Below, piece after piece: positions 11,844 through 45,667 of a stretch of 64,000 nt of DNA (position 1 is its first letter; every line of letters starts with the position of its first letter). The DNA comes from a virus, in IMG/VR virus record IMGVR_UViG_3300049740_000832; one strand, given 5' to 3'. Made by a program: the position numbers and the translations under genes. The notes below the pieces were generated by a model, which was given only the letters and a program-made list of their open reading frames with translations, was not told where the DNA came from and did no database searches.

Positions 11844-13154
11844 ATGCAAGTATCTTACGATAACCTTATCGAGAAGTGGGCTCCAGTATTGGACGAAACT
11901 TCCGCTGGCGAGATTAAAGACCATCATCGCCGTGCGGTGACTGCCGCTATCTTGGAAAACCAAGAGAAAGCAATCGCCGAGACCCGTGCTGCTGAGCAAG
12001 GTTTCCTGACGGAAGCTGCACCAGCAAACAATACGGGTTCAGTAAACAACTTTGACCCAGTGTTAATTTCACTGGTTCGCCGCGCCATGCCAAACCTCAT
12101 TGCTTATGACGTTTGTGGCGTTCAACCAATGAATGGCCCAACTGGTCTCATCTTCGCGATGAAGTCCCGTTATCAAGGCGGTTCAACATCTAATCGTGAA
12201 GCCCTGTTCAACGAAGCTGAAACTCAGTTCTCTGGCGACAGCTCAGGCACTCACGACTCTGACAACCCATCAGGTTACAATGGTATCGATTCAGACGGCG
12301 CTCGTTTGTCTTCGCTTGCCGCTGGTGGTATGCCAACTGATGACGCAGAATCTCTGGGTTCAACTGGTGGTTCTTCGTTCAACGAAATGGGTTTCACTAT
12401 TGAGCGCCAAACTGTTACTGCCAAAAGCCGTGCGCTGAAAGCAGAATACAGCTTGGAACTCGCACAAGACCTGAAAGCAATCCACGGTCTTGACGCTGAA
12501 ACTGAGTTGGCAAACATTCTGTCAACTGAAATCTTGGCCGAAATCAACCGTGAAGTTATCAGAACGATTAACTCACAGGCTAAAAACGGCGCTCAACAGT
12601 CAAACGTCACCGTCAATGGTGTGTTTAACTTGAGTTCTGATGCCGATGGTCGTTGGTCTGCTGAGAAATTCAAAGGTCTGACGGTTCAGATTGACCGTGA
12701 GTCCAATGTAATTGCTAAAGAAACTCGCCGTGGTAAAGGTAACGTAGTAATCTGTTCTTCAGACGTTGCTACTGCACTGGCCGCTGCTGGTTCTTTGGAC
12801 TATTCTCCAGCAATCAGCAACAATCTGCAAGTAGACGATACAGGTAACACCTTCGCTGGTGTCCTTAATGGTCGTGTGCGTGTATACATTGACCCATATG
12901 CACAGACTGATTATGTAACCGTTGGTTACAAAGGTCAGAACCCATATGACAGTGGTGTATTCTACTGCCCATATGTTCCGCTGCAAATGGTCAAGGCCGT
13001 TGGTGAAGACACATTCCAACCTCGTATCGGGTTCAAAACTCGTTACGGTATGGCATCGAACCCATTTGTTGGTTCTACGCCTTCGAATGGTCTGGCATCT
13101 GCCAAAACCAACCAATACTATCGTATCTTCAAAGTTACGAATATCCTTACATAA
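11844..13154 (+). CDS. gp23: Major capsid protein (gp23)
   Basis: LIEKWAPVL, VQPMNGPTGLIFAM, YCPYVPL, FQPRIGFKTRYG. Confidence 0.98.
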   Translation: MQVSYDNLIEKWAPVLDETSAGEIKDHHRRAVTAAILENQEKAIAETRAAEQGFLTEAAPANNTGSVNNFDPVLISLVRRAMPNLIAYDVCGVQPMNGPTGLIFAMKSRYQGGSTSNREALFNEAETQFSGDSSGTHDSDNPSGYNGIDSDGARLSSLAAGGMPTDDAESLGSTGGSSFNEMGFTIERQTVTAKSRALKAEYSLELAQDLKAIHGLDAETELANILSTEILAEINREVIRTINSQAKNGAQQSNVTVNGVFNLSSDADGRWSAEKFKGLTVQIDRESNVIAKETRRGKGNVVICSSDVATALAAAGSLDYSPAISNNLQVDDTGNTFAGVLNGRVRVYIDPYAQTDYVTVGYKGQNPYDSGVFYCPYVPLQMVKAVGEDTFQPRIGFKTRYGMASNPFVGSTPSNGLASAKTNQYYRIFKVTNILT

Positions 13155-13193: not shown

Positions 13194-13221
13194 GGGAGAC
13201 CTTCGGGTCTCCCTTTTTTTT
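13194..13221 (+). terminator. Intrinsic terminator after gp23
   Basis: GGGAGACC-TTCG-GGTCTCCC plus T8 (cUUCGg tetraloop typical of T4-like phages). Confidence 0.92.
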
Positions 13222-13242
13222 GCTTTTTTTTGAAAAAAGTGC

Positions 13243-13271
13243 TTGACAATTCCTGATACTTGTTGTAATAT
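13243..13271 (+). promoter_or_regulatory. Sigma70-like early promoter
   Basis: TTGACA-N17-TAATAT; RBS GAAAGGA at 13289. Confidence 0.7.
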
Positions 13272-13302
13272 AAAGTATAAGTTGAGTTGAAAGGAACTAG
13301 AA

Positions 13303-13560
13303 ATGATTACGGAAATTACTTTTAAAGAGAAACAGAACTTCGCAGACTACTGTGAGATGTTCTATGGTGAAGGTCAGTTGTATGCTAATCGTGACTTCGC
13401 TACTCGTGAACAAATCATGGAAGCCACTAACATCTATCTGATGCGTGGTGATAAACAGTTCTTCATCGATGGTGAACATCGGTGGGGCGGTGGTGACACC
13501 GTTGACCGTGAGATTATCGCTGGTATTCTCACTGACGAACTTGGTGTTGACCTCTACTAG
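13303..13560 (+). CDS. Hypothetical early protein
   Basis: 85 aa ORF with strong RBS. Confidence 0.75.
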   Translation: MITEITFKEKQNFADYCEMFYGEGQLYANRDFATREQIMEATNIYLMRGDKQFFIDGEHRWGGGDTVDREIIAGILTDELGVDLY

Positions 13561-13573
13561 AAAGGATTAGATT

Positions 13574-13816
13574 ATGATACGTCAAAACAATGATACTGGA
13601 TATGTTTTCAACCTAGATGGCCCCGAAGGCAATGCGTTTGTCCTTCTGGGTGCTGCATCTAATCTGTGTCGGGAACTTGATTACAATAAAGATGAAGTCA
13701 TGGAAGACTTACAGGCGGGTGACTACAATCACCTGTTGGTTGCCTTCGAATCATACTTCGGGCCGTTTGTTACTTTAGAAACAAATAATCCCGAATATTT
13801 GGCGCTTTTTGCTTGA
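13574..13816 (+). CDS. Hypothetical early protein (DGPEGNAFVLLG motif, common in phages)
   Basis: 80 aa ORF with RBS GAAAGGA. Confidence 0.75.
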   Translation: MIRQNNDTGYVFNLDGPEGNAFVLLGAASNLCRELDYNKDEVMEDLQAGDYNHLLVAFESYFGPFVTLETNNPEYLALFA

Positions 13817-13841
13817 CATTCTATGCGGAATGCCGTATAGT
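13813..13841 (+). promoter_or_regulatory. Sigma70-like early promoter
   Basis: TTGACA-N17-TATAGT. Confidence 0.75.
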
Positions 13842-13870
13842 TAATATGTAATTGAGAGAAAGGAATCGTT

Positions 13871-14026
13871 ATGAATTATTTGATTAAGGATGCAGATACG
13901 GGTCGGACTTTGGCTGGTATGTTTGAAGCAATCGAAACTGTCGAAGAAGCACAGGGCGCACAAGCCTACTTCATCGAGAAGGGTTTCGCAGAGAATGTTG
14001 TTATTGTAGAATATGAGGTTGAGTAA
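13871..14026 (+). CDS. Small hypothetical protein (MNYLIKDADTG...)
   Basis: Read manually; RBS GAAAGGA at 13858; below the ORF-track cutoff. Confidence 0.65.
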   Translation: MNYLIKDADTGRTLAGMFEAIETVEEAQGAQAYFIEKGFAENVVIVEYEVE

Positions 14027-14187
14027 TGAAGTTAGGTAAATTTTTTGTAGAGGTCGATACCTCTGTGACTGGTGGGGAAGTAGAAGGTTACTACTTTCGT
14101 ATCAAAGAAGACCGTGATGCTCGTGTAGAAACATTGGTCAATGAATATGGTGTAGAAGTTATTAATGCGATTGGAGATTATCAATGA
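14026..14187 (+). CDS. Small hypothetical protein (MKLGKFFVEV...)
   Basis: TAATG coupling with the previous ORF and ATGA overlap with the next. Confidence 0.6.
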   Translation: MKLGKFFVEVDTSVTGGEVEGYYFRIKEDRDARVETLVNEYGVEVINAIGDYQ

Positions 14188-14420
14188 CACATATGTATTA
14201 CGCTGATTTAGAAGTAACTTATAAGGATGGTTCTATTGGAGCCAAACGTTTTGAGGGTGTGTCATTGACTGCCGTTCAAGATAAAGCATCCGCTAAGTTA
14301 AAAGAAGTAATTGAGACTTCTAAACTAATCAAAGAACAACATGGAGATAAGACTTTCCAAGTTGTGAAACACAAAATTACTGCGGCTCAACTTAAAACGG
14401 ATAAGAAGTTCAATGCCTGA
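14184..14420 (+). CDS. Hypothetical protein
   Basis: 78 aa ORF with GGAG RBS. Confidence 0.7.
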   Translation: MTHMYYADLEVTYKDGSIGAKRFEGVSLTAVQDKASAKLKEVIETSKLIKEQHGDKTFQVVKHKITAAQLKTDKKFNA

Positions 14421-14544
14421 TTATACCCGTCTCCTCTGTAATGCCATGAAGGCATACGAGAACGCTCAGTCTGATTGGGCGAAAGAATATTGGTTGGAAG
14501 TCGCTGCTAAGTTAGCGCAGAATGCCGAAAAAGTCTTGCATTAA
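14413..14544 (+). CDS. Small hypothetical protein (MPDYTRLLCNAM...)
   Basis: 43 aa ORF overlapping the previous stop; read manually. Confidence 0.5.
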   Translation: MPDYTRLLCNAMKAYENAQSDWAKEYWLEVAAKLAQNAEKVLH

Positions 14545-14562
14545 ATTGTATATATAAGTTGT

Positions 14563-14636
14563 GCGGATGTAGCATAATGGTAATGCCGTAGGTTACCAAC
14601 CTACTGATGGGAGTTCGATTCTCTCCGTCCGCTCCA
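14563..14636 (+). tRNA. tRNA-Gly, anticodon ACC
   Basis: Full cloverleaf: GCGGATG/CGTCCGC acceptor, U73, encoded CCA, GCAT/ATGC D-stem, GTAGG-TTACCAA-CCTAC anticodon arm, GGGAG-TTCGATT-CTCTC T-arm. Confidence 0.92.
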
Positions 14637-14644
14637 ATTTTTCC

Positions 14645-14673
14645 TTGACAATCGATGCTATATAGAGTATAAT
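14645..14673 (+). promoter_or_regulatory. Sigma70-like early promoter
   Basis: Perfect TTGACA-N17-TATAAT. Confidence 0.85.
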
Positions 14674-14697
14674 GTTATTATACGATGAGGCACAAAT

Positions 14698-15831
14698 ATG
14701 ATTTTGAATAAGGAAGACGCACTATACGCTGCGAATGTTTTTACGAAGTTCTTTGCGAACTTTGACCGTATTGACGATTACATGCGAACAATCAAACTGG
14801 AACGCATGGAAAGAACTGCTTTCAACTCTCTGCCTGGCATGGGGCCAGAAGAAGACATCTTCAACAAGTTTGATATCCACCCTCGTGATATGGAGTTCAC
14901 TATCTATGAACCCAAACTCAATGAGTTCATGCAGTATATGGAGATTACCACATCCGCACCAGTCGAGTCATCAATCCCAGGCAAACAACTAAACTTTATT
15001 GTGAAAGAAAAGAATACTGGTCTGGTCGTTGGTATGATTCGTTTCGGGTCACCGACTATCAACTCCAAACCACGCAATGAATGGTTAGGTAAACCACTGG
15101 AAACACTCAACCCCGATGTGATGAAACGTTTCAATGACTCGTGCATCATGGGGTTCAATATTGTTCCGACCCAACCGTTTGGTTTCAACTATCTTGGTGG
15201 TAAGTTACTTGCCGCTATCTGTTGCTCCCATATGTCACGGAAACGTCTCAATGAGAAATACGATGCGAACATCTGTATGTTTGAGACTACATCCCTATAT
15301 GGGTCAACCAAGTCTGCGTCTCAATACGATGGTATGAAACCATTCTTGAGACACAATGGTCTGACAGACTCTAACTTCGCACCTCTAATTAATGATGATA
15401 ACTATCGCAGTTTGAGTGATTGGTTCATCAAGAAGAATGATGGTGTCCCTCTTGTTCCTTCAGACGCCTCATCTCGTAAACTGAAGACACAGACCAAGAT
15501 GGTCGCGATTATCAAGAACTCACTGAAAGAGTTTGATGAGTCTGCGTATAAGAAGTTCTGTCAGACCTTCATTGATGCGAAGGGATTAACAGAACGGAAA
15601 CGTTCTTACTACTCAACCTATGGGTATGACAATGTGCAACAGTATCTCAACCTTGAGACTGACACACTGGTCAAGAAAGAAAACTATGACCGTTTCAGTC
15701 TTGAGGGTGTGACAGAGTGGTGGCGCAACAAGGCATCTAATCGATATGAAACTCTAAAACAGGATAATCGTCTGCGAACTGTTGTAGAGTCATGGAATGT
15801 GAACGCAGACGAGATTGATATTATACGATGA
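14698..15831 (+). CDS. DUF4338 / DruA-like protein
   Basis: Motifs G.IRFGSP, P.QPFGFNYLGGKLLA and ETTSLYG...SQY resemble DUF4338/DruA (recognised by eye). Confidence 0.55.
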   Translation: MILNKEDALYAANVFTKFFANFDRIDDYMRTIKLERMERTAFNSLPGMGPEEDIFNKFDIHPRDMEFTIYEPKLNEFMQYMEITTSAPVESSIPGKQLNFIVKEKNTGLVVGMIRFGSPTINSKPRNEWLGKPLETLNPDVMKRFNDSCIMGFNIVPTQPFGFNYLGGKLLAAICCSHMSRKRLNEKYDANICMFETTSLYGSTKSASQYDGMKPFLRHNGLTDSNFAPLINDDNYRSLSDWFIKKNDGVPLVPSDASSRKLKTQTKMVAIIKNSLKEFDESAYKKFCQTFIDAKGLTERKRSYYSTYGYDNVQQYLNLETDTLVKKENYDRFSLEGVTEWWRNKASNRYETLKQDNRLRTVVESWNVNADEIDIIR

Positions 15832-16340
15832 ATACTAAATTGATTGAAAAATACGGTGACCAAGTAAAGGTTCAAAACTCTCTTTGGGGTGAAGATGTTG
15901 TGATGGATTGGAGACCTCATGCTGGGGAATCTGCAACACATTCAGGTAAACTATTTGAAGATATCACAGAAGATGTCTTGAAATCAAATAGTAATGTTCG
16001 AGGTATCACCACAAAACCAAAATTCAACTGTCATTTTGGATTACCCCGTGAAGGTGATTTTGAGTTGATACATAAAGATAACCTTGTTCATATTGAGTGC
16101 AAACAATTGGGGAATGCAGAGTCGCACTTTGATAAACTCTCTCACGTTTTCATGAACTTGATATGCGGTTGTTATGGTAAGAATTTCTGGTTGGTATATG
16201 ACTATAACAAAGATGGTGGTAAATCAACATTGAAAAAAATCGAGTATCTGGAGAAACGTTGTCAGGTAATCAAAGAACAGGTTGCACTTCAAGGCATCAC
16301 TTTTGAATATCTAACTCTTAATAAACTACAGAACATGTAA
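15828..16340 (+). CDS. Putative PD-(D/E)XK nuclease
   Basis: G..FE ... EGDF ... IECK arrangement typical of the restriction-endonuclease fold; ATGA-coupled to the upstream gene. Confidence 0.6.
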   Translation: MNTKLIEKYGDQVKVQNSLWGEDVVMDWRPHAGESATHSGKLFEDITEDVLKSNSNVRGITTKPKFNCHFGLPREGDFELIHKDNLVHIECKQLGNAESHFDKLSHVFMNLICGCYGKNFWLVYDYNKDGGKSTLKKIEYLEKRCQVIKEQVALQGITFEYLTLNKLQNM

Positions 16341-16351
16341 CGCAAAACTCT

Positions 16352-16359
16352 TATAAATA
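16352..16359 (+). promoter_or_regulatory. Late promoter TATAAATA (gp3)
   Basis: Exact consensus. Confidence 0.8.
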
Positions 16360-16382
16360 GAAGTATATTATAAGGGGTAACT

Positions 16383-16910
16383 ATGCCAGTAACATCAACT
16401 GTTCAGATATCAGATGAAACACTGACAACGAATCTGAATTATCTCCAACCAACAGGTTTCCGTGTTATCATAAATAGAACACGTTATCCAAACTTGGAAT
16501 ATTTTTGTCAGTCAGTCAATCATCCAGGCGCGACATTATCTCCTGTAGAATTACCTAGTCGCCGTATTACATCTGTCCCTCTTGCGGGAGACAAGATAAC
16601 TTTCTCTGAAGTCTCATTCCAGATTATTCTCGATGAGGATATGACTTCATACAGAGAGATGTATGACTGGATGATTCGTATCACCAATGATGGTCAAGTG
16701 TCTGCGGGTGAGACGATGACCAAAGCCCCTACATATGCTGATATCACGTTGTCGGTTCTATCCAGTCACAACAATACAACCAAGAAAATAAGATATAAGG
16801 ATTGTGTCCCCACATCACTAGGAACAATCGACTTCCAGTCAACAACAGGCGCAACTAGTATCTTGACATTTGACGCATCATTTAGGTTTGCACAATTCGA
16901 AATAGTTTGA
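16383..16910 (+). CDS. gp3: Tail completion / tube terminator (gp3-like)
   Basis: NYLQPTGF, EYFCQSVNHPG, DCVPTSLG; lies before uvsY as in marine T4-like phages. Confidence 0.85.
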   Translation: MPVTSTVQISDETLTTNLNYLQPTGFRVIINRTRYPNLEYFCQSVNHPGATLSPVELPSRRITSVPLAGDKITFSEVSFQIILDEDMTSYREMYDWMIRITNDGQVSAGETMTKAPTYADITLSVLSSHNNTTKKIRYKDCVPTSLGTIDFQSTTGATSILTFDASFRFAQFEIV

Positions 16911-16935
16911 CTTTTTATATAAACTTTGGTATAAT
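16907..16935 (+). promoter_or_regulatory. Sigma70-like promoter (uvsY)
   Basis: TTGACT-N17-TATAAT. Confidence 0.75.
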
Positions 16936-16940
16936 ACATT

Positions 16941-17390
16941 ATGATTGATTTAGAAAGTATCCTTGCGGAGTGGAAAGAAGACTCCGTAATCGCAAAACAT
17001 CAACTAGACGAGACCTCGCGTGTGACCCCTGCGTTACATTCGAAGTATCTCGAATACCTATCTCTGACCAAACTACGTCTCAAGAAGGCAGAGTTTGACC
17101 AGAAGACTCTCCTCAAAGATAAATATCTCTACTATGAAGGTAAGATGTCTCAAGAAGATATCGAATCCCGTGGATGGGAGTATGACCCGTATGATGGTCT
17201 AAATGCAACCACCAAGAACTTCAAAGAATATTACTATGACTCTGATAAAGATATCCAAGACTCTGAAATGAAAATTCAGTATCTTAAAACGATTATAGAT
17301 ACACTCGAAGAAATAGTTAGTAACCTGAACTGGCGACACCAGACAATCGGTAACATGATACGCTGGAGGCAATTCGAAGCGGGAGCATAA
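16941..17390 (+). CDS. uvsY: Recombination mediator UvsY
   Basis: W.EDS.I, LHSKYL, YY.GK, I.W..F.AG. Confidence 0.9.
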   Translation: MIDLESILAEWKEDSVIAKHQLDETSRVTPALHSKYLEYLSLTKLRLKKAEFDQKTLLKDKYLYYEGKMSQEDIESRGWEYDPYDGLNATTKNFKEYYYDSDKDIQDSEMKIQYLKTIIDTLEEIVSNLNWRHQTIGNMIRWRQFEAGA

Positions 17391-17391
17391 A

Positions 17392-17532
17392 ATGAAATGG
17401 TTTGATGAAGTTAGAGAAACCTTCAAAGTAAATAAGGTATATCAGTCACGTTGGGTATGGTATCACACCATCCTTGCGGTTGAAATATTTTTGACTAACA
17501 TCCTACTTATCCTCATCCTGTTCAAGTTGTGA
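17392..17532 (+). CDS. Small membrane protein
   Basis: 46 aa with a C-terminal hydrophobic helix; GTGA overlap with uvsW. Confidence 0.55.
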   Translation: MKWFDEVRETFKVNKVYQSRWVWYHTILAVEIFLTNILLILILFKL

Positions 17533-19010
17533 GTTTACCTAATACTATCACAGTCGGTCTCAAAGACCATTCTATGATGTTGGTTGACTGTGAAGCACAC
17601 CAACTCCCAGAACTGCGCGACTACTTTTCTTTCTACGTTCCAGGCTATAAGTTTATGCCGATGTATAAGTCGCGCAAGTGGGACGGTAAAATCAAACTAT
17701 TCAATCAGGTCACTCGCGAACTGAATGTTGGTCTATACGACCACTTGAAGAAGTTCTGTTCTGACCGTATGTATCCTCTCCAACTACAGGAGACCTCATA
17801 CGGTCATCCCGCAAAAACTAATCACGTTCAACACCAGAATCTCATCAAGTTTCAGAGTGAACTAGGTCTACCTTTTGAACTACGCGACTATCAGTATGAT
17901 GCAGTTACCCACAGTATCGAGAAAAAACGGGCGATTCTTCTGTCACCCACAGGTTCGGGTAAGTCATTTATCATCTATAATCTGTTGCGGTGGTATATCG
18001 ATAACTATGATAAACAAGTTCTCATTGTTGTTCCCACAACAAGTCTGGTCGAACAGATGCATAAGGACTTTGAAGAATATGGGTTTGACCCTGACCTATG
18101 TCATAAGATTTATTCTGGTAAGGATAAGACGACTGACAAACAAATCGTCATCTCCACATGGCAATCTATCTATAAATTTCCAAAGGAATGGTTTGAAAAC
18201 TTCGGTTGCGTATTTGGAGACGAGGTGCATTTGTTCAAGGCAAAATCCCTGTCAGGTATCATGAACAAATGTCTCAACGCAGAATACCGTTTCGGCACCA
18301 CTGGCACGCTCGATGGCACTGAAACTAATAAACTGGTATTAGAGGGTCTGTTCGGGCCAACTAAACGTGTCACTATGACACGGGATTTGCAAGAGAAGGG
18401 AACACTTGCGAAACTAAATATATCTGTCCTGTTGTTGCGATATCATAATGATGTATGTCATATGTTGAAGGACGCAACCTATCAGGAAGAGATTGACTAT
18501 ATCGTTCAGAACGAGAAACGTAATAAACTCATCACCAATCTCGCACTTGACCAGAAGGGTAACACTCTGGTTCTCTTTCAGTTCGTAGAGAAACATGGTA
18601 AGGTTCTCTTTGACATGATGAGAGATAAGGCAGAGGAAGGTCGTAAGATTTTCTATGTGTCGGGTGAGGTGGACGCAACTGACCGCGAACAGATTCGTGG
18701 TATCGTGGAGAAACAGAAAAATGCTATCATCGTTGCATCACTCGGCACTTTTAGCACAGGCATCAACATTAGGAATCTGCATAACATTGTCTTTGCTAGT
18801 CCTAGTAAGTCTCAAGTTAAAGTTCTGCAATCGATAGGACGGGGTTTGCGTCAGTCAGATGATGGGTCGGTCACACAACTCTACGACATTGCGGATGACA
18901 TGCATATCAGGTCACACAAGAACTTTACCCTACGACACAGCGCAGAAAGAATCAAGATATATACCAAAGAACAGTTTCCCCATAAGATTTACAAAGTGGA
19001 CTTAAAGTAA
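17529..19010 (+). CDS. uvsW: DNA helicase UvsW
   Basis: WDGKIKLF, SPTGSGKS, DEVH, QSIGRGLR. Confidence 0.96.
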   Translation: MSLPNTITVGLKDHSMMLVDCEAHQLPELRDYFSFYVPGYKFMPMYKSRKWDGKIKLFNQVTRELNVGLYDHLKKFCSDRMYPLQLQETSYGHPAKTNHVQHQNLIKFQSELGLPFELRDYQYDAVTHSIEKKRAILLSPTGSGKSFIIYNLLRWYIDNYDKQVLIVVPTTSLVEQMHKDFEEYGFDPDLCHKIYSGKDKTTDKQIVISTWQSIYKFPKEWFENFGCVFGDEVHLFKAKSLSGIMNKCLNAEYRFGTTGTLDGTETNKLVLEGLFGPTKRVTMTRDLQEKGTLAKLNISVLLLRYHNDVCHMLKDATYQEEIDYIVQNEKRNKLITNLALDQKGNTLVLFQFVEKHGKVLFDMMRDKAEEGRKIFYVSGEVDATDREQIRGIVEKQKNAIIVASLGTFSTGINIRNLHNIVFASPSKSQVKVLQSIGRGLRQSDDGSVTQLYDIADDMHIRSHKNFTLRHSAERIKIYTKEQFPHKIYKVDLK

Positions 19011-20662
19011 TGCATGGATTGATGTTTGGCGGCTTTCGAGTTGGCATGATGAAAAGCATGTTCCAAAAAAGCAAAAAAGAAAGAACAGCAGACAGGACAA
19101 GTAGTAAATTTGGAAATGCATACGCAGGGATACAATCTATCCCCGATTTTTATCGAGCATTTGGCGCACATAGAGTCGCGACATATCTAAGAAAACAAGG
19201 GTGGGATATAGAATGTCTTGATTACATGTATCATTTTTCTGATGAAGAACTTCGTGAATATGTGGATAAAAGAATAACAAAAGATACTGTATTCATTGGC
19301 GTCAGTGTCATCTTCCAATTAGATAGAGATTCTGCCTCACAGTTTGTAAGACTCATGGAATATATTCGAAAGAAATGGCCGTGGGTAAAATTTGTTGCGG
19401 GTGGAGTAAAATCATATTGTATTACCTGTTTGCCTGGCGTAGATTATTATATCGCTGGAAACGGTGAATATGCGATGGACGCACTTTTAGGTCATTTGAC
19501 AGCAGGGAAAGAAAAACCTATAGTAAAAAAATCTGAGACTGGATTAGAGATTATTGATGGATATGATGATTATGCATGTTACCCTAAACGAGATGCTGCG
19601 ATATCTTATGAGGATAGAGACTTTATCAAACCTAATGAAATGTTAAATATTGAATTAGGTCGTGGATGTCGTTTTGCATGTAAGTATTGTTCATACCCCC
19701 TCATTGGATTAAAGGGTAATCAGATGCGTGATGGTGATAGTGTCCACGATGAACTGTTAGAAAATTATGAACGTTGGGGAGTAAAGAACTACTATATTAC
19801 AGATGATACAGTAAATGACAGTAAACAAAAAATGAAGATGGTAGGTGATGCAGTAAGAAGACTTCCATTTCAAACACAACTTCATGGATACGCACGAGCA
19901 GACTTATTGATTCGTCACGGTAAAGAAACGTGGGATGACATGATTGCTGCGGGTTATACATCACACAGTTATGGTGTTGAATCATTTAATTATGAGTCAG
20001 CAAAGGTCATGGGAAAGGGAATGCCGCCCGAAGAGACAAAAGAAGGATTACTTGAGGCCGAAGAGTATTTTAACAAAAACTCTCCATACTTTTACACGGG
20101 TTCTATGACTATGATTGCGGGACTACCATTCGAGACATTTGAAACATTAGATGCAACGAAAGATTGGTTGAATAAGTATTGGTCTAATCACACTGTCTCG
20201 TATCTACCCTTATTTTTGCAACAGGACGATGGTAGTATTATTGATGAGATAGATAACACTATAACGAAAAATTTTATAGATTACGGTTACACTTTTTCAA
20301 GTGATATCACAATATTGAATCCTATTCATCGCGAATTATATAAAAACACTATCATGAGTAGAGACGGATTGAATCCTGAGAAAAAACGAATGTTTAATTA
20401 TTGGATTCATCCTAGTGGTGACTATGACTGGTTTGACGCTTTAGAATGGGTAGAAGATTTTTTAGCTGAAAAATATATGAGACTTGGGCACGACCCTACA
20501 TATTGTTTTCAGGGTCAACCCGTAGCAATGAAAGAATATGAAACACCTGAGAATTTCAAACACTATTACAAAGCAGATTCATGGCGATACAAACTAGATG
20601 AAATAGAGACGATGATGGAATTTCTTAATAACTACAAAAAGGAAAAGTTATCTTACATATAA
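19010..20662 (+). CDS. B12-binding-domain radical SAM protein
   Basis: GRGCRFACKYC (CxxxCxxC), N-terminal cobalamin-binding-like region (AGG..., GNGE), DD, GVESF, GLPFET. Confidence 0.85.
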   Translation: MHGLMFGGFRVGMMKSMFQKSKKERTADRTSSKFGNAYAGIQSIPDFYRAFGAHRVATYLRKQGWDIECLDYMYHFSDEELREYVDKRITKDTVFIGVSVIFQLDRDSASQFVRLMEYIRKKWPWVKFVAGGVKSYCITCLPGVDYYIAGNGEYAMDALLGHLTAGKEKPIVKKSETGLEIIDGYDDYACYPKRDAAISYEDRDFIKPNEMLNIELGRGCRFACKYCSYPLIGLKGNQMRDGDSVHDELLENYERWGVKNYYITDDTVNDSKQKMKMVGDAVRRLPFQTQLHGYARADLLIRHGKETWDDMIAAGYTSHSYGVESFNYESAKVMGKGMPPEETKEGLLEAEEYFNKNSPYFYTGSMTMIAGLPFETFETLDATKDWLNKYWSNHTVSYLPLFLQQDDGSIIDEIDNTITKNFIDYGYTFSSDITILNPIHRELYKNTIMSRDGLNPEKKRMFNYWIHPSGDYDWFDALEWVEDFLAEKYMRLGHDPTYCFQGQPVAMKEYETPENFKHYYKADSWRYKLDEIETMMEFLNNYKKEKLSYI

Positions 20663-20665
20663 ATA
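20658..20665 (+). promoter_or_regulatory. Late promoter TATAAATA
   Basis: Exact consensus upstream of 20691. Confidence 0.75.
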
Positions 20666-20690
20666 GTTATGTAAAACGTAAGGATATACT

Positions 20691-21176
20691 ATGGATATAA
20701 ACGAAGAACAATACGAAATCAGACAATTCAAACTCGCATCAGGTGAAGAGGTTGTGTGTGAGATTATTCAATGGCACAATGAAGAAGAACTTGAGATTGT
20801 GGTTAGGAAACCCATGAAACTTGTTATGGGTGAAATGGCTGAAACAGGTGTTCGATATTATTCATTCCGGCCGTGGATGGTATATCAAGAGAATCCAGAA
20901 GACTTGATTGTCTTGAATGGCCATCATGTCATTGGTATTGGATTTCCACCAAAAACTCTCATCGCACAATATGATGAGGCAGTTGATGAGATGGCGCAGA
21001 TGAATAAACAAAGAGAAATTGAGTATGAGGAAGCGCACCCCACTTCTAAAGATATTGAAAATATCACAAAGAAAGTAAAAGCATCTGCGAAAGGTATTGA
21101 AGATTATTTAACACTGTTGAAGAATGATAGTGATTTTAGTAATGTAATTCAGTTTGACCCTAAGAAGGTTCATTAG
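20691..21176 (+). CDS. Conserved T4-like hypothetical protein (Sm-like, KLASGEEV)
   Basis: FKLASGEEVVCEI...RPWM motif, typical of the gene upstream of gp55. Confidence 0.65.
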   Translation: MDINEEQYEIRQFKLASGEEVVCEIIQWHNEEELEIVVRKPMKLVMGEMAETGVRYYSFRPWMVYQENPEDLIVLNGHHVIGIGFPPKTLIAQYDEAVDEMAQMNKQREIEYEEAHPTSKDIENITKKVKASAKGIEDYLTLLKNDSDFSNVIQFDPKKVH

Positions 21177-21207
21177 GAGTATTCAACCCTCCCCAAAAGG
21201 CAGCTTA

Positions 21208-21236
21208 AGTATAACATGAATTACAACTTTTGTCAA
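21208..21236 (-). promoter_or_regulatory. Antisense sigma70-like promoter
   Basis: Minus strand TTGACA-N17-TATACT. Confidence 0.65.
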
Positions 21237-21249
21237 GCATTATTTTTAG

Positions 21250-21278
21250 TTGACATGAGAAAAAAAATGTAGTATAAT
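21250..21278 (+). promoter_or_regulatory. Sigma70-like promoter (gp55)
   Basis: Perfect TTGACA-N17-TATAAT. Confidence 0.85.
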
Positions 21279-21301
21279 ATGAATTAAATCTGGAGAATAT
21301 T

Positions 21302-21901
21302 ATGACAAAAGTAAAACCAAAAGATAAACCACATTATGTAAATAATGCACAGTTTTCACAGGCAGTAGTAGACTATGTTACTCTGTTGGATAAAGAACGT
21401 AAATCGGGAAATAATAATCTACCCAAAGTTCCTGACTATATCGCGGAATGTTTTCTCAAAATCTGTGAGGGATTGTCGCACAAATCAAACTTTGTTCGAT
21501 ACACATATCGCGAAGAGATGGTGATGGATGCGGTAGAGAATTGTCTCAAGGCGATTGAGAATTATAATCTAGAGGCAGCGACACGCACGGGTAAACCAAA
21601 TGCGTTTGCATACTTTACACAGATTTCATGGTTTGCATTTTTACGCCGTATTGAAAAAGAAAAGAAACAACAGGATATTAAGATGAAGTATATCAATCAA
21701 TCTGGTATTGAGAACTTCCTCGACAATGAACTGGGTGATGAACAATCAGCCTCAGTCGCACAGGCATTTGTTGACCAACTTCGTATTCGGATTGATGAGG
21801 TCAAAGAGAAAGACTCTGAGTGGAAAGATATTGTTAAAAAGGAACGTAAGAGACGCACAGTCAAAGCGGATTCTGATTTAAGTAATTTTATTGTTGACTA
21901 A
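21302..21901 (+). CDS. gp55: Late-transcription sigma factor (gp55)
   Basis: HYVNN, YIAECFLKI, NF..YTYREEM, NAFAYFTQI...AFLRRI.KEKKQ. Confidence 0.96.
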   Translation: MTKVKPKDKPHYVNNAQFSQAVVDYVTLLDKERKSGNNNLPKVPDYIAECFLKICEGLSHKSNFVRYTYREEMVMDAVENCLKAIENYNLEAATRTGKPNAFAYFTQISWFAFLRRIEKEKKQQDIKMKYINQSGIENFLDNELGDEQSASVAQAFVDQLRIRIDEVKEKDSEWKDIVKKERKRRTVKADSDLSNFIVD

Positions 21902-27659: not shown

Positions 27660-27869
27660 ATGAAATATGTTAAAATTGGCGATAACGACCACATTCCAGA
27701 AGAACGAAGTTGGTATTACGATGACCACGGTAATCGTTTAGATAAACAAACTAACCAAGTTGTGGTTCTTGTTCCTACACTAAAAAACGACATAGAACGA
27801 GACCCTATGGTTCTTGTCAATGTCGAAGGAGAATGGATTCCTAAACAAATGGAGTTTGAGTTTGGATAA
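27660..27869 (+). CDS. Hypothetical protein
   Basis: MKYVKIGDNDH...; GGGG RBS. Confidence 0.6.
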   Translation: MKYVKIGDNDHIPEERSWYYDDHGNRLDKQTNQVVVLVPTLKNDIERDPMVLVNVEGEWIPKQMEFEFG

Positions 27870-28284
27870 GTGGGATAAAGCGCATATGACAACAGCGAGT
27901 GTCTATGCAAAACTGTCATCAGCACAACGAATGCAAGTTGGTGCTATCCTTGTAAAAGATAATCGAATTATTTCTATTGGGTATAATGGTATGCCTTCGG
28001 GTTGGACTAACAATTGTGAAACAACAGATGAGTATGGAAATAATCTAAAAACGAAAGAAGAGGTATTACATGCAGAGACGAATGCTATTGCAAAGGTCGC
28101 GCAATCTAATGAATCAGCGAAGGCGTCTACTCTATACACAACATGCGCCCCATGTATCCACTGTGCAAAACTCATCTACCAAGCCGGCATATCAAGAGTT
28201 GTATACGGACACGGATATCGAGACAACAAAGGATTGACTTTCCTCAAACAATGTGATATACTACTTGAACAACTGGAGATTTAG
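27814..28284 (+). CDS. cd: dCMP deaminase
   Basis: VGAILVKD.RIISIGYNG, HAETNAI, PCIHC. Exact start uncertain. Confidence 0.88.
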   Translation: MSMSKENGFLNKWSLSLDKWDKAHMTTASVYAKLSSAQRMQVGAILVKDNRIISIGYNGMPSGWTNNCETTDEYGNNLKTKEEVLHAETNAIAKVAQSNESAKASTLYTTCAPCIHCAKLIYQAGISRVVYGHGYRDNKGLTFLKQCDILLEQLEI

Positions 28285-44230: not shown

Positions 44231-44414
44231 AAAATCCAAACCTATGGGTGACGGAAACCTGATGAAGACTATGTTGTTCTTCAAGGCATGTAAAGAAGTT
44301 CTTGAAGAGTATGGTCATGATGATGCTGCATTCTACTTTGAACAGTTAGAAACGCACATGCGAGATGGTGGCACTCTTGACCAGAACAAAGCGGGAAATA
44401 TTCTTGGAGTATAA
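44208..44414 (+). CDS. Small hypothetical protein
   Basis: MSNQRAAKK...; AGGAG RBS. Confidence 0.6.
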   Translation: MSNQRAAKKSKPMGDGNLMKTMLFFKACKEVLEEYGHDDAAFYFEQLETHMRDGGTLDQNKAGNILGV

Positions 44415-44417
44415 ATA
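44410..44417 (+). promoter_or_regulatory. Late promoter TATAAATA upstream of tmRNA
   Basis: Exact consensus. Confidence 0.75.
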
Positions 44418-44423
44418 ATGGTG

Positions 44424-44716
44424 TTAATTCATAGATTTTTATCGTATTCGTTGAAGCAAACTGAAAGATAGACTGGACGGGGGTGCGATACCCCCCGCCT
44501 CCACCAAACCCCCTCTGAGGGGGCGAAATAGGTTCGACAGGTATCAAGTAGGAATGTGGAGAATAGGTGCGGAAGCCACCTGTGAGTCGGACGGGCAATC
44601 CCATCCGCAAGAGCGCAACAAACTCGTAAGTGCAAACGATAATTACGCACATGAGGATTACGCCCTCGCGGCATAATCTTCGGGGTCAGGGGACGCCTAG
44701 CAACAGAAGTCCCCAC
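44424..44716 (+). ncRNA. ssrA: Two-piece (circularly permuted) tmRNA; tag (A)ANDNYAHEDYALAA
   Basis: Acceptor 3' end ...GGGGGTGCGATACCCCCCGCCTCCACCA (to 44506) precedes the 5' GGGGGCGAAATAGGTTCGAC (from 44519). G3:U70 pair. Tag ORF 44632-44676. Ends approximate. Confidence 0.93.
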
Positions 44717-44735
44717 TTTTATATTAGGAGATATC

Positions 44736-45590: not shown

Positions 45591-45667
45591 CGGGGTTTAG
45601 CACAGTCTGGTAGTGCGCTCGCTTTGGGAGCGAGAGGTCGGAAGTTCGAATCTTCCAACCCCGACCA
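45591..45667 (+). tRNA. tRNA-Pro, anticodon TGG
   Basis: CGGGGTT/AACCCCG acceptor, A73, CCA; CTCGC-TTTGGGA-GCGAG; GGAAG-TTCGAAT-CTTCC. Confidence 0.95.

Follow-up and report, generated by a model that had tools for sequence, protein, structure and literature searches.

Introduction

Transfer RNAs (tRNAs) for glycine with the anticodon ACC have been termed ‘universally absent’ in nature, and Gly-tRNA(ACC) is regarded as the sole four-box tRNA with adenine at wobble position 34 (A34) that is unused in nature, for which structural and fitness reasons have been proposed (PMC4928997; bioRxiv 10.64898/2026.05.15.725136). Here, we describe such a tRNA gene, located at positions 14563-14636 of the IMG/VR virus record IMGVR_UViG_3300049740_000832; the whole stretch of 64,000 nucleotides that was analysed is referred to as the window. 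We firmly conclude that this tRNA is real and canonical with full glycine identity, and that it belongs to a lineage physically coupled to a gene of the DruA family with a GNAT fold. Judging from the sequences, we are equally firm that the ACC anticodon is recurrent in phages.

Several described systems resemble parts of this locus. The tRNA-Gly (UCC) of phages T4 and T2 is, like the window tRNA, a phage elongator tRNA-Gly with the same backbone type (75.7% identity over 74 nt), yet it carries U at the wobble position where the window tRNA has A, and the latter is coupled to a DruA/GNAT gene instead of a tRNA cluster. Because A replaces U, the best-matched codon shifts from GGA/GGG to GGU. The window genome is itself T4-like, the tRNA genes of T4-like cyanophages and pelagiphages belong to the same comparison, and a near-complete sister genome (G002) has Gly(UCC) among four other tRNAs, of which three have U34 (Ser UGA, Arg UCU, Pro UGG) and the fourth is Asn GUU. 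An E. coli tRNAGly(ACC) has been made by engineering (Boren et al. 1993; Raval et al. 2026 preprint), with the same anticodon and a bacterial-type body; these are laboratory mutants, whereas the window tRNA is natural, conserved and recurrent in phages. Mycoplasma tRNA-Thr AGU, a natural tRNA with unmodified A34, is a further comparable case.

On the protein side, Mom of phage Mu (PF25680, PDB 8BV8) is a phage enzyme of GNAT fold that moves glycine from Gly-tRNAGly onto the N6 position of DNA adenine (PMC13219725), and it is the top structural match of the DruA-like protein encoded in the window. Mu has no tRNA of its own, Mom using host Gly-tRNAGly, and the window protein differs from Mom in showing no sequence relation, in its length (377 amino acids), in its Pfam family (DruA) and in extra N- and C-terminal helices. 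In staphylococci, a dedicated non-proteinogenic tRNA-Gly feeds GNAT-fold aminoacyl-transferases (FemX/A/B), as proposed here for the DruA-linked tRNAs. Many DruA-linked phage tRNA-Gly genes are likewise without G18G19 or show unusual T loops, a trait to be expected of carriers working off the ribosome; the staphylococcal tRNAs, however, are UCC, whereas the window tRNA is ACC and has all canonical elbow and T-loop features. The DruA protein of type I Druantia systems (PF14236) has its Pfam family in common with the window protein, although the window copy is phage-encoded and lies between head and recombination genes. None of the Druantia partners DruB-DruE was found among the genes scanned within about 4 kb, the surrounding genes being those for phage head, tail-tube, UvsY and helicase proteins, and no described mechanism for DruA was found in the literature searched.

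Phage tRNAs, unmodified A34 tRNAs and tRNA-dependent GNAT enzymes are thus each already known. A natural, recurrent Gly-tRNA(ACC) and a DruA-family GNAT with its own tRNA-Gly are not described in the literature searched, where no paper on a natural phage Gly-tRNA(ACC) was found either.

Structure and glycine identity of the tRNA

The initial annotation had read the element as an intact cloverleaf of glycine identity with the anticodon loop TT-ACC-AA, and the ARAGORN call, the Rfam score and direct reading of the sequence all agree with it:

14563..14636 (+), tRNA-Gly(ACC), 74 nt, canonical cloverleaf with encoded CCA (ARAGORN, Rfam RF00005, family covariation)
14595..14597 (+), anticodon ACC; the derived base is A34 at 14595

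In ARAGORN, 14563-14636 (+) comes out as tRNA-Gly(acc), and as the anticodon begins at position 33 of the gene, A34 falls on 14595. The Rfam model RF00005 is matched over its full length, 1-71, with 64.3 bits (gathering score 29, E 1.2e-11). The sequence forms an acceptor stem of G1-C72, C2-G71, G3-C70, G4-C69, A5-U68, U6-G67 and G7-C66 with the discriminator U73, a D loop AATGGTA in which G18G19 is present, an anticodon loop T32 T33 A34 C35 C36 A37 A38, a variable region of 4 bases and a T arm GGGAG/TTCGATT/CTCTC with the pair G53-C61. None of the ribosome and EF-Tu features has been lost, G18G19, the T loop TTCGATT and G53-C61 all being kept, and base 34 is the sole abnormal point of the molecule.

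Glycyl-tRNA synthetase (GlyRS) recognises C35, C36, U73 and the first three acceptor pairs, and the glycine codon box is four-fold. The bacterial GlyRS identity set (G1-C72, C2-G71, G3-C70, U73, C35, C36) is complete in the window tRNA, and G1-C72, C2-G71, C35 and C36 are invariant in the alignment of the tRNA-Gly family. Over 25 homologous phage tRNA-Gly genes, standard pairs occupy 96.9% of the cloverleaf cells and 17 of the 21 pairs show compensatory changes, a number reached by 0 of 500 shuffles. Base 34 itself is not read by GlyRS (PMC4928997). Since the synthetase ignores this base and the glycine box is four-fold, a change from U34 to A would cost neither charging nor fidelity.

Origin of the ACC anticodon

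An independently assembled contig, IMGVR_UViG_3300010296_002064 (= Ga0129348_1000022, 43.6 kb), aligns to positions 13982-21758 of the window at 94-97% identity and contains the identical 74 bases of the tRNA including ACC, while the flanks differ at 3.5-6% of positions. This identity in an independent contig rules out an assembly error or a private mutation as the source of ACC; GCC or TCC in close relatives was what the initial annotation had named as evidence against its reading, and the closest relative also has ACC. The next relatives (L003-L007) have a nucleotide identity of 70-90% and a DruA-like protein 92-94% identical; their orthologous tRNA carries TTTCCAA, i.e. a TCC anticodon, and the anticodon-stem differences between the ACC and TCC versions are compensatory. 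Of the 60 IMG/VR contigs that have the D arm of the window tRNA, 47 have T at base 34 and 11 have G, while C and A occur once each. On the exact backbone of the window tRNA, ACC occurs in two closely related genomes only. Because the sister clade has TCC and base 34 is mostly T among the D-arm relatives, ACC is, by this comparison, a derived and recent U34-to-A change common to at least two genomes.

Recurrence of ACC glycine tRNAs in phages

We scanned IMG/VR and prokaryotes with a loose pattern (TGGTA, ten bases, TTACCAA, 13-14 bases, GTTCRA); since such patterns are tied to particular D-loop and T-loop motifs, the counts are lower bounds and not frequencies. In IMG/VR at least 100 contigs matched, and ARAGORN called tRNA-Gly(acc) in 94 of the 99 new loci fetched, that is in at least 94 further contigs, with 47 distinct sequences on many backbones. 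In one genome each of 185,579 prokaryote species, the same pattern gave 71 matches, of which just 18 are tRNA-Gly(acc), and part of these 18 sit in phage-like tRNA arrays. ACC glycine tRNAs are therefore more numerous in the viral contigs than in the prokaryote species of these scans, and the near-absence of Gly(ACC) from cells stated in the initial annotation holds here as it does in the literature. A megablast search with three abundant ACC families against 50,697 phage records yielded no usable match to a cultured phage with an ACC glycine tRNA.

Within the family of the window tRNA, the metagenome scan found two further backbones with ACC, one in L063 and one in L064/L066. The L063 tRNA adjoins a transfer-messenger RNA (tmRNA), in a position matching that of the UCC-bearing contigs L008, L009, L015 and L057, and the L064/L066 tRNA comes from a phage of 24% G+C. 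When the ACC or TCC label is placed on a maximum-likelihood tree of 33 linked neighbouring proteins, at least six changes are needed, in 200 of 200 bootstrap trees. Intact, conserved ACC glycine tRNAs have thus arisen repeatedly in phages, and they offer natural material for studying unmodified A34 decoding, the cellular avoidance of ACC and the benefit that a Watson-Crick GGU reader may bring to AT-rich phages.

Many ACC tRNAs have surroundings other than those in the window. The notion that ACC always adjoins a DruA-like gene was rejected: of the 94 generic ACC contigs, no more than 3-4 have a close homologue of that gene in the fetched flanks. Clamp-loader genes lie on both sides of the ACC tRNA most often found alone, and further lone canonical ones lie in replication modules (e.g. 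next to DNA polymerase) with no GNAT or transferase gene nearby. Many of the contigs L068-L166 are from uncultured AT-rich phages with large tRNA arrays that hold Gly(ACC) and Gly(UCC) without GCC; a few other non-Arg A34 tRNAs occur in these arrays (Ser ACT, Thr AGT, Val AAC, Ala AGC, Ser AGA, Pro AGG). In three genomes of freshwater actinobacteria (L198, L200 and L210; Candidatus Planktophila / Nanopelagicaceae), ARAGORN calls a Gly(acc) tRNA whose acceptor starts with GGGGGCG and whose discriminator is A, without the C2-G71/U73 glycine identity set; this may be a different kind of tRNA-like gene.

Linkage of glycine tRNAs to a DruA-like gene

The window tRNA lies 61 nt upstream of the following open reading frame (ORF):

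14698..15831 (+), DruA/DUF4338-family protein of 377 amino acids, phrog_19197, with a GNAT-fold core (Pfam PF14236, PHROG, AlphaFold model, Foldseek, VIA-align)

In loci fetched by the tRNA, a DruA-like gene lies near the tRNA-Gly in several arrangements. At a distance of 14-120 nt, the tRNA is upstream of the gene in the window, L027, L034, L037, L038, L142 and L165 and downstream in L026, L042, L050, L053, L059 and L088; in L004, L006 and L007 it lies about 1.1 kb downstream. The DruA-like proteins of these loci are 42% to 97% identical to the window copy, and even genes just 42-77% identical to it have a tRNA-Gly 9-120 nt up- or downstream.

A second sample was chosen by protein alone and consists of 80 IMG/VR loci picked by their DruA-like protein, with 2.5 kb flanks; its counts are again lower bounds, not frequencies. 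ARAGORN found 11 tRNAs in these loci, all of them tRNA-Gly. A family covariance model built from relatives of the tRNA-Gly matched in 18 loci, in every case a tRNA of glycine type on the strand of the gene, so that ARAGORN misses 7 of the 18. The anticodons are TCC in 10, ACC in 7 and CCC in 1. Many of the linked genes (L238-L242, L262, L247, L263, L264, L268-L272) are deformed: in some, position 33 is G or C32 and G38 pair to close the anticodon loop, and in others the D loop has no GG, the T loop reads GCAATC, GCATTA or GCAGTA, or the T arm is cut short; from their sequences, such tRNAs look chargeable but unfit for the ribosome.

Two relatives with fuller genomes fit the pairing of tRNA-Gly and DruA-like gene: in the complete genome of Phage C48C1 both are missing, and the UCC-bearing sister G002 (87% complete) has the DruA-like gene and exactly one tRNA-Gly among its five tRNAs.

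The DruA-like protein

The ORF matches Pfam DruA (PF14236) with 38 bits against a gathering cut-off of 27, the match being limited to residues 85-199, and PF14236 is present in all 120 of its listed homologues. The family is very large, with 6,717 proteins at E <=1e-5, and residues G95, G112, R126, S208, Y210, W342 and R349 are invariant. The AlphaFold (AF2) model has a pLDDT of 90.5, and its Foldseek matches are exclusively GNAT acyltransferases. In VIA-align, the top match is phage Mu Mom, 8bv8_A (Z 10.4, root mean square deviation 4.0, 186 of 222 residues aligned); other GNATs reach Z 9-10 over about 140-165 residues, FemA among them with Z 9.2. Membership of the Mom family was tried and rejected, as no sequence-level match appears in Pfam, PDB sequences, NCBIfam or hhalign: phmmer and hmmsearch against PDB sequences found no match to the DruA-like protein, and NCBIfam showed no Mom sequence homology. 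As sequence-level similarity to Mom is nil, the neighbour is a DruA-family GNAT with a Mom-like fold that stands outside the Mom family. On the basis of this modelled fold, it is the proposed user of the Gly-tRNA.

Discussion

With these results in mind, we consider the chances about even that the window tRNA is a working, glycine-charged tRNA that is best matched to GGU and probably also feeds the DruA/GNAT transferase. The wobble base would have changed from U to A in a young lineage of marine T4-like (Kyanoviridae-related) phage. A34 would most likely stay unmodified and form Watson-Crick pairs with GGU, the phage's dominant glycine codon, other GGN codons being read weakly. Transcription of the tRNA, which closes a block of small ORFs, would probably be early and start from sigma-70-type promoters. 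Because the tRNA's lineage is physically coupled to the GNAT-fold DruA/DUF4338 gene, it probably also provides the DruA-like enzyme with Gly-tRNA for a glycyl transfer that depends on the tRNA, comparable to that of Mu Mom onto DNA adenine. We infer the charging and expression of the tRNA, the absence of inosine and the decoding pattern, and likewise the donor role and the enzyme's target.

Decoding and glycine donation both fit the data and are mutually compatible. On the side of decoding, the glycine codons of the window are 59% GGT, 15% GGC, 18% GGA and 8% GGG (72 ORFs), in agreement with the preference for GGT noted at the outset. The median G+C of ACC-bearing loci is 30-33%, and 64 of 80 use GGT more than any other glycine codon. 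Among the 37 phage loci that hold five tRNAs or more, 25 have ACC plus UCC as their glycine set and just 2 have GCC; the ACC-UCC pair fits the two glycine codons in use, the medians of the ACC+UCC loci being GGT 64%, GGA 27% and GGC 2%. In published work, E. coli tRNAGly(ACC) is expressed, charged and unmodified (Boren 1993 via PMC11066159, PMC4928997; bioRxiv 10.64898/2026.05.15.725136); it reads GGU strongly and GGC weakly and competes on GGA/GGG (Boren 1993 via PMC11066159). Real decoding would be favoured by the tRNA's canonical form, its kinship with T4 tRNA-Gly, its fit to GGU and the wide use of ACC with UCC in the tRNA sets of AT-rich phages. A role as glycine carrier would be favoured by the glycine-only linkage that survives rearrangement, by the Mom-like fold of the modelled protein and by the many deformed linked tRNAs. 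A possible non-ribosomal role is suggested by the tRNA lineage travelling with a GNAT-fold gene, the product of which is structurally closest to Mu Mom.

A number of observations weigh against the combined reading. Sister phages with UCC are equally GGT-biased (56-62%), and the test for a codon shift was negative, glycine codon usage being the same in ACC- and UCC-bearing sisters. The Watson-Crick GGU reader suggested by the initial annotation is thus plausible, and it fits the published E. coli tRNAGly(ACC) and the survey of ACC phages, but a selective shift to GGU reading is not demonstrated, since codon use is unchanged between these sisters. G34 would serve GGY reading equally well, yet 0 cases are seen in the GNAT-linked set, and overexpression of Gly-tRNA(ACC) slows the growth of E. 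coli (bioRxiv 10.64898/2026.05.15.725136). ACC is also fixed in a clade of linked tRNAs that are unfit for the ribosome (no G18G19, odd T loops, C32-G38); as these are unlikely to decode, ACC is not solely a decoding matter. The linkage, in turn, is partial: of the 36 loci nearest to the window's protein (L238-L273), 17 have a tRNA-Gly within 2.5 kb, as do approximately 0-1 of 44 loci of the clade at 51-60% (L274-L317), and the same tRNA lineage also adjoins tmRNA with the DruA-like gene not in view. Finally, the likeness to Mom is structural only, with rival GNATs less than 1 Z unit behind 8bv8_A; the DruA-like protein does not match PF25680 (Mom) at E <=0.01 in Pfam, where Mu Mom itself scores 253 bits, and hhalign of the family profile against Mu Mom gives a probability of 0.2.

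It is possible, if rather unlikely, that the tRNA is a private glycine carrier only, feeding mainly the DruA/GNAT transferase, with base 34 freed from decoding constraint. ACC would then have no role for GGU and would be either tolerated drift or a means to keep the carrier from most ribosomal decoding and from U34-modifying enzymes. Such a role finds a precedent in Mom, which uses a Gly-tRNA donor (PMC13219725), and it agrees with the exclusive glycine type of the tRNA-like genes near DruA-like genes, many of them deformed yet keeping the GlyRS elements (G1-C72, C2-G71, C35, C36, CCA). The presence of ACC in 7 of the 18 linked genes of the protein-chosen sample, the six or more flips of the ACC/UCC label on the protein tree, the unchanged codon use of the sisters and a proximity that survives local rearrangement (the tRNA is 61 nt 5' of the gene in the window and 1.1 kb 3' of it in L004/6/7) point the same way. 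The window tRNA, however, is fully canonical and 76% identical to a decoder, T4 tRNA-Gly, and ACC is also common in phage tRNA arrays and in lone tRNAs without a GNAT gene nearby. Moreover, U changed to A at least six times, to C, the easier transition, once and to G never, which is unlike plain drift; this argues against pure drift at base 34 and indicates no particular selective force.

A related proposal, which we put forward tentatively and hold to be doubtful, is a two-part system of marine T4-like phages in which a DruA-family GNAT and its own tRNA-Gly would draw on glycine carried by the tRNA for the modification of phage DNA or of some other target. ACC would have been selected and would set the carrier apart from the host's decoding tRNAs; it might, for example, escape U34 modification, a host attack directed at tRNA-Gly or most ribosomal use. 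If this is true, ACC glycine tRNAs mark a new class of tRNA-dependent modification systems, and the view that Gly-tRNA(ACC) is non-existent in nature is overturned. More generally, the glycine-specific linkage to a GNAT-fold DruA-family gene suggests a possible second phage tRNA-dependent modification system after Mu Mom and gives a functional lead for the defence protein DruA.

Returning to the preferred reading, a GGU-matched tRNA that probably also serves the transferase, three other explanations of A34 compete with it and are improbable even when taken jointly. The first, also raised in the initial annotation and in our view very unlikely, is defence evasion: A34 would let the tRNA-Gly escape an anticodon nuclease or modifier of the host or a competing element that attacks tRNA-Gly(UCC), with glycine decoding kept. 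Changes in the anticodon loop are known to free phage tRNAs from anticodon nucleases (PMC10264068; PMC11555353; PMC11464382), and the recurrent, lineage-specific U/A flips resemble an arms race. On the other hand, no nuclease targeting tRNA-Gly was found in the literature searched, no defence or anti-defence gene is tied to the window tRNA, and an ACC tRNA replaces UCC poorly on GGA and GGG (PMC11066159).

Conversion of A34 to inosine by host TadA or a phage enzyme, giving one tRNA for GGU, GGC and GGA, is more improbable still. The loop U33-A34-C35-x-A37-A38 equals that of the TadA substrate tRNA-Arg(ACG) except at positions 32 and 36 (PMC11066159), and the window does encode one zinc deaminase (27814-28284 (+), HAE...PCxxC motif, Pfam dCMP_cyt_deam_1 87.7 bits), its only one. 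We rejected this protein as a phage TadA, since it is of dCMP/ComEB type and scores 41.5 bits for TadA against a cut-off of 150. Besides, the loop type of TadA substrates (U33-A34-C35-G36-A37) is not matched by the window tRNA, in which position 36 is C and position 32 is U. E. coli TadA does not deaminate ACC anticodons (PMC11066159; Boren 1993 as cited there; bioRxiv 10.64898/2026.05.15.725136), and tRNAGly(ACC) is a poor substrate of human ADAT (PMC4928997).

Least credible of all is a decaying or neutral gene that has lost its function and carries ACC as a recent, slightly deleterious mutation awaiting purge: ACC on this exact backbone is indeed confined to two closely related genomes and the sister phages carry UCC, but all 74 of 74 bases are identical in two genomes whose flanks differ by 3.5-6%, the cloverleaf and every identity element are intact, and the same change recurs in many intact phage tRNA-Gly genes.

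Genomic context of the tRNA

The window phage is T4-like, with about 41% G+C and almost all genes on one strand. PHROG and Pfam identify a tail sheath, a scaffold, a major head protein, a tail-tube-like protein, UvsY, a helicase, an SbcC-like nuclease subunit and a DNA polymerase. The nearest named phage is Phage C48C1 (Kyanoviridae), whose DNA polymerase is 62% identical and whose gene order is the same, followed by marine cyanophages with a DNA polymerase identity of about 47%. Around the tRNA and the DruA-like gene, we found the following features:

11844-13154, major head protein gene (PHROG 138)
13194..13213 (+), terminator-like hairpin and T-run, 3' of the major head protein gene, at the start of an inserted early-type block
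13243..13271 (+), TTGACA-17-TAATAT, a sigma-70-like promoter by consensus match only, from which the small ORFs up to and including the tRNA could be transcribed
13813..13841 (+), TTGACA-17-TATAGT, a further sigma-70-like promoter (11/12; consensus match only), 5' of both the tRNA and the small ORFs at 13871-14544
14645..14673 (+), TTGACA-17-TATAAT, a promoter that matches the sigma-70 consensus perfectly, 3' of the tRNA and 5' of the DruA-like gene
15828..16340 (+), ORF of 170 amino acids, translationally coupled to the DruA-like gene, with its start overlapping that gene's stop

The window tRNA is the last element of the small-ORF block and is followed by the promoter at 14645..14673 and then by the DruA-like ORF. 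The 170-amino-acid ORF has no family match in Pfam, PHROG or NCBIfam. The block as a whole (13194-16340), with its small ORFs, the tRNA, the DruA-like gene and the 170-amino-acid ORF, extends from the major head protein gene to the tail-tube-like gene. Phage C48C1 has no such block in its syntenic region, and L003-L007 have it in rearranged form, with an inverted tail-tube-like gene and with the tRNA adjoining uvsY. In its behaviour the block resembles a mobile or plastic island that brings sigma-70-type promoters into the late-gene region.

Elsewhere in the window, at 44373-44717 (+), lies a full-length, two-piece (permuted) alpha-type tmRNA (Rfam alpha_tmRNA 100.8 bits, tmRNA_permuted 110.9 bits). 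ARAGORN makes no call for it and calls its homologue in the related contigs L008, L009 and L015, with the tag ANDNYAHEEYALAA; in these three, a tRNA-Gly(UCC) lies about 400 nt upstream of the tmRNA. Some 900 nt 3' of the window tmRNA, at 45591-45667 (+), there is a tRNA-Pro(UGG) scoring 68.9 bits.

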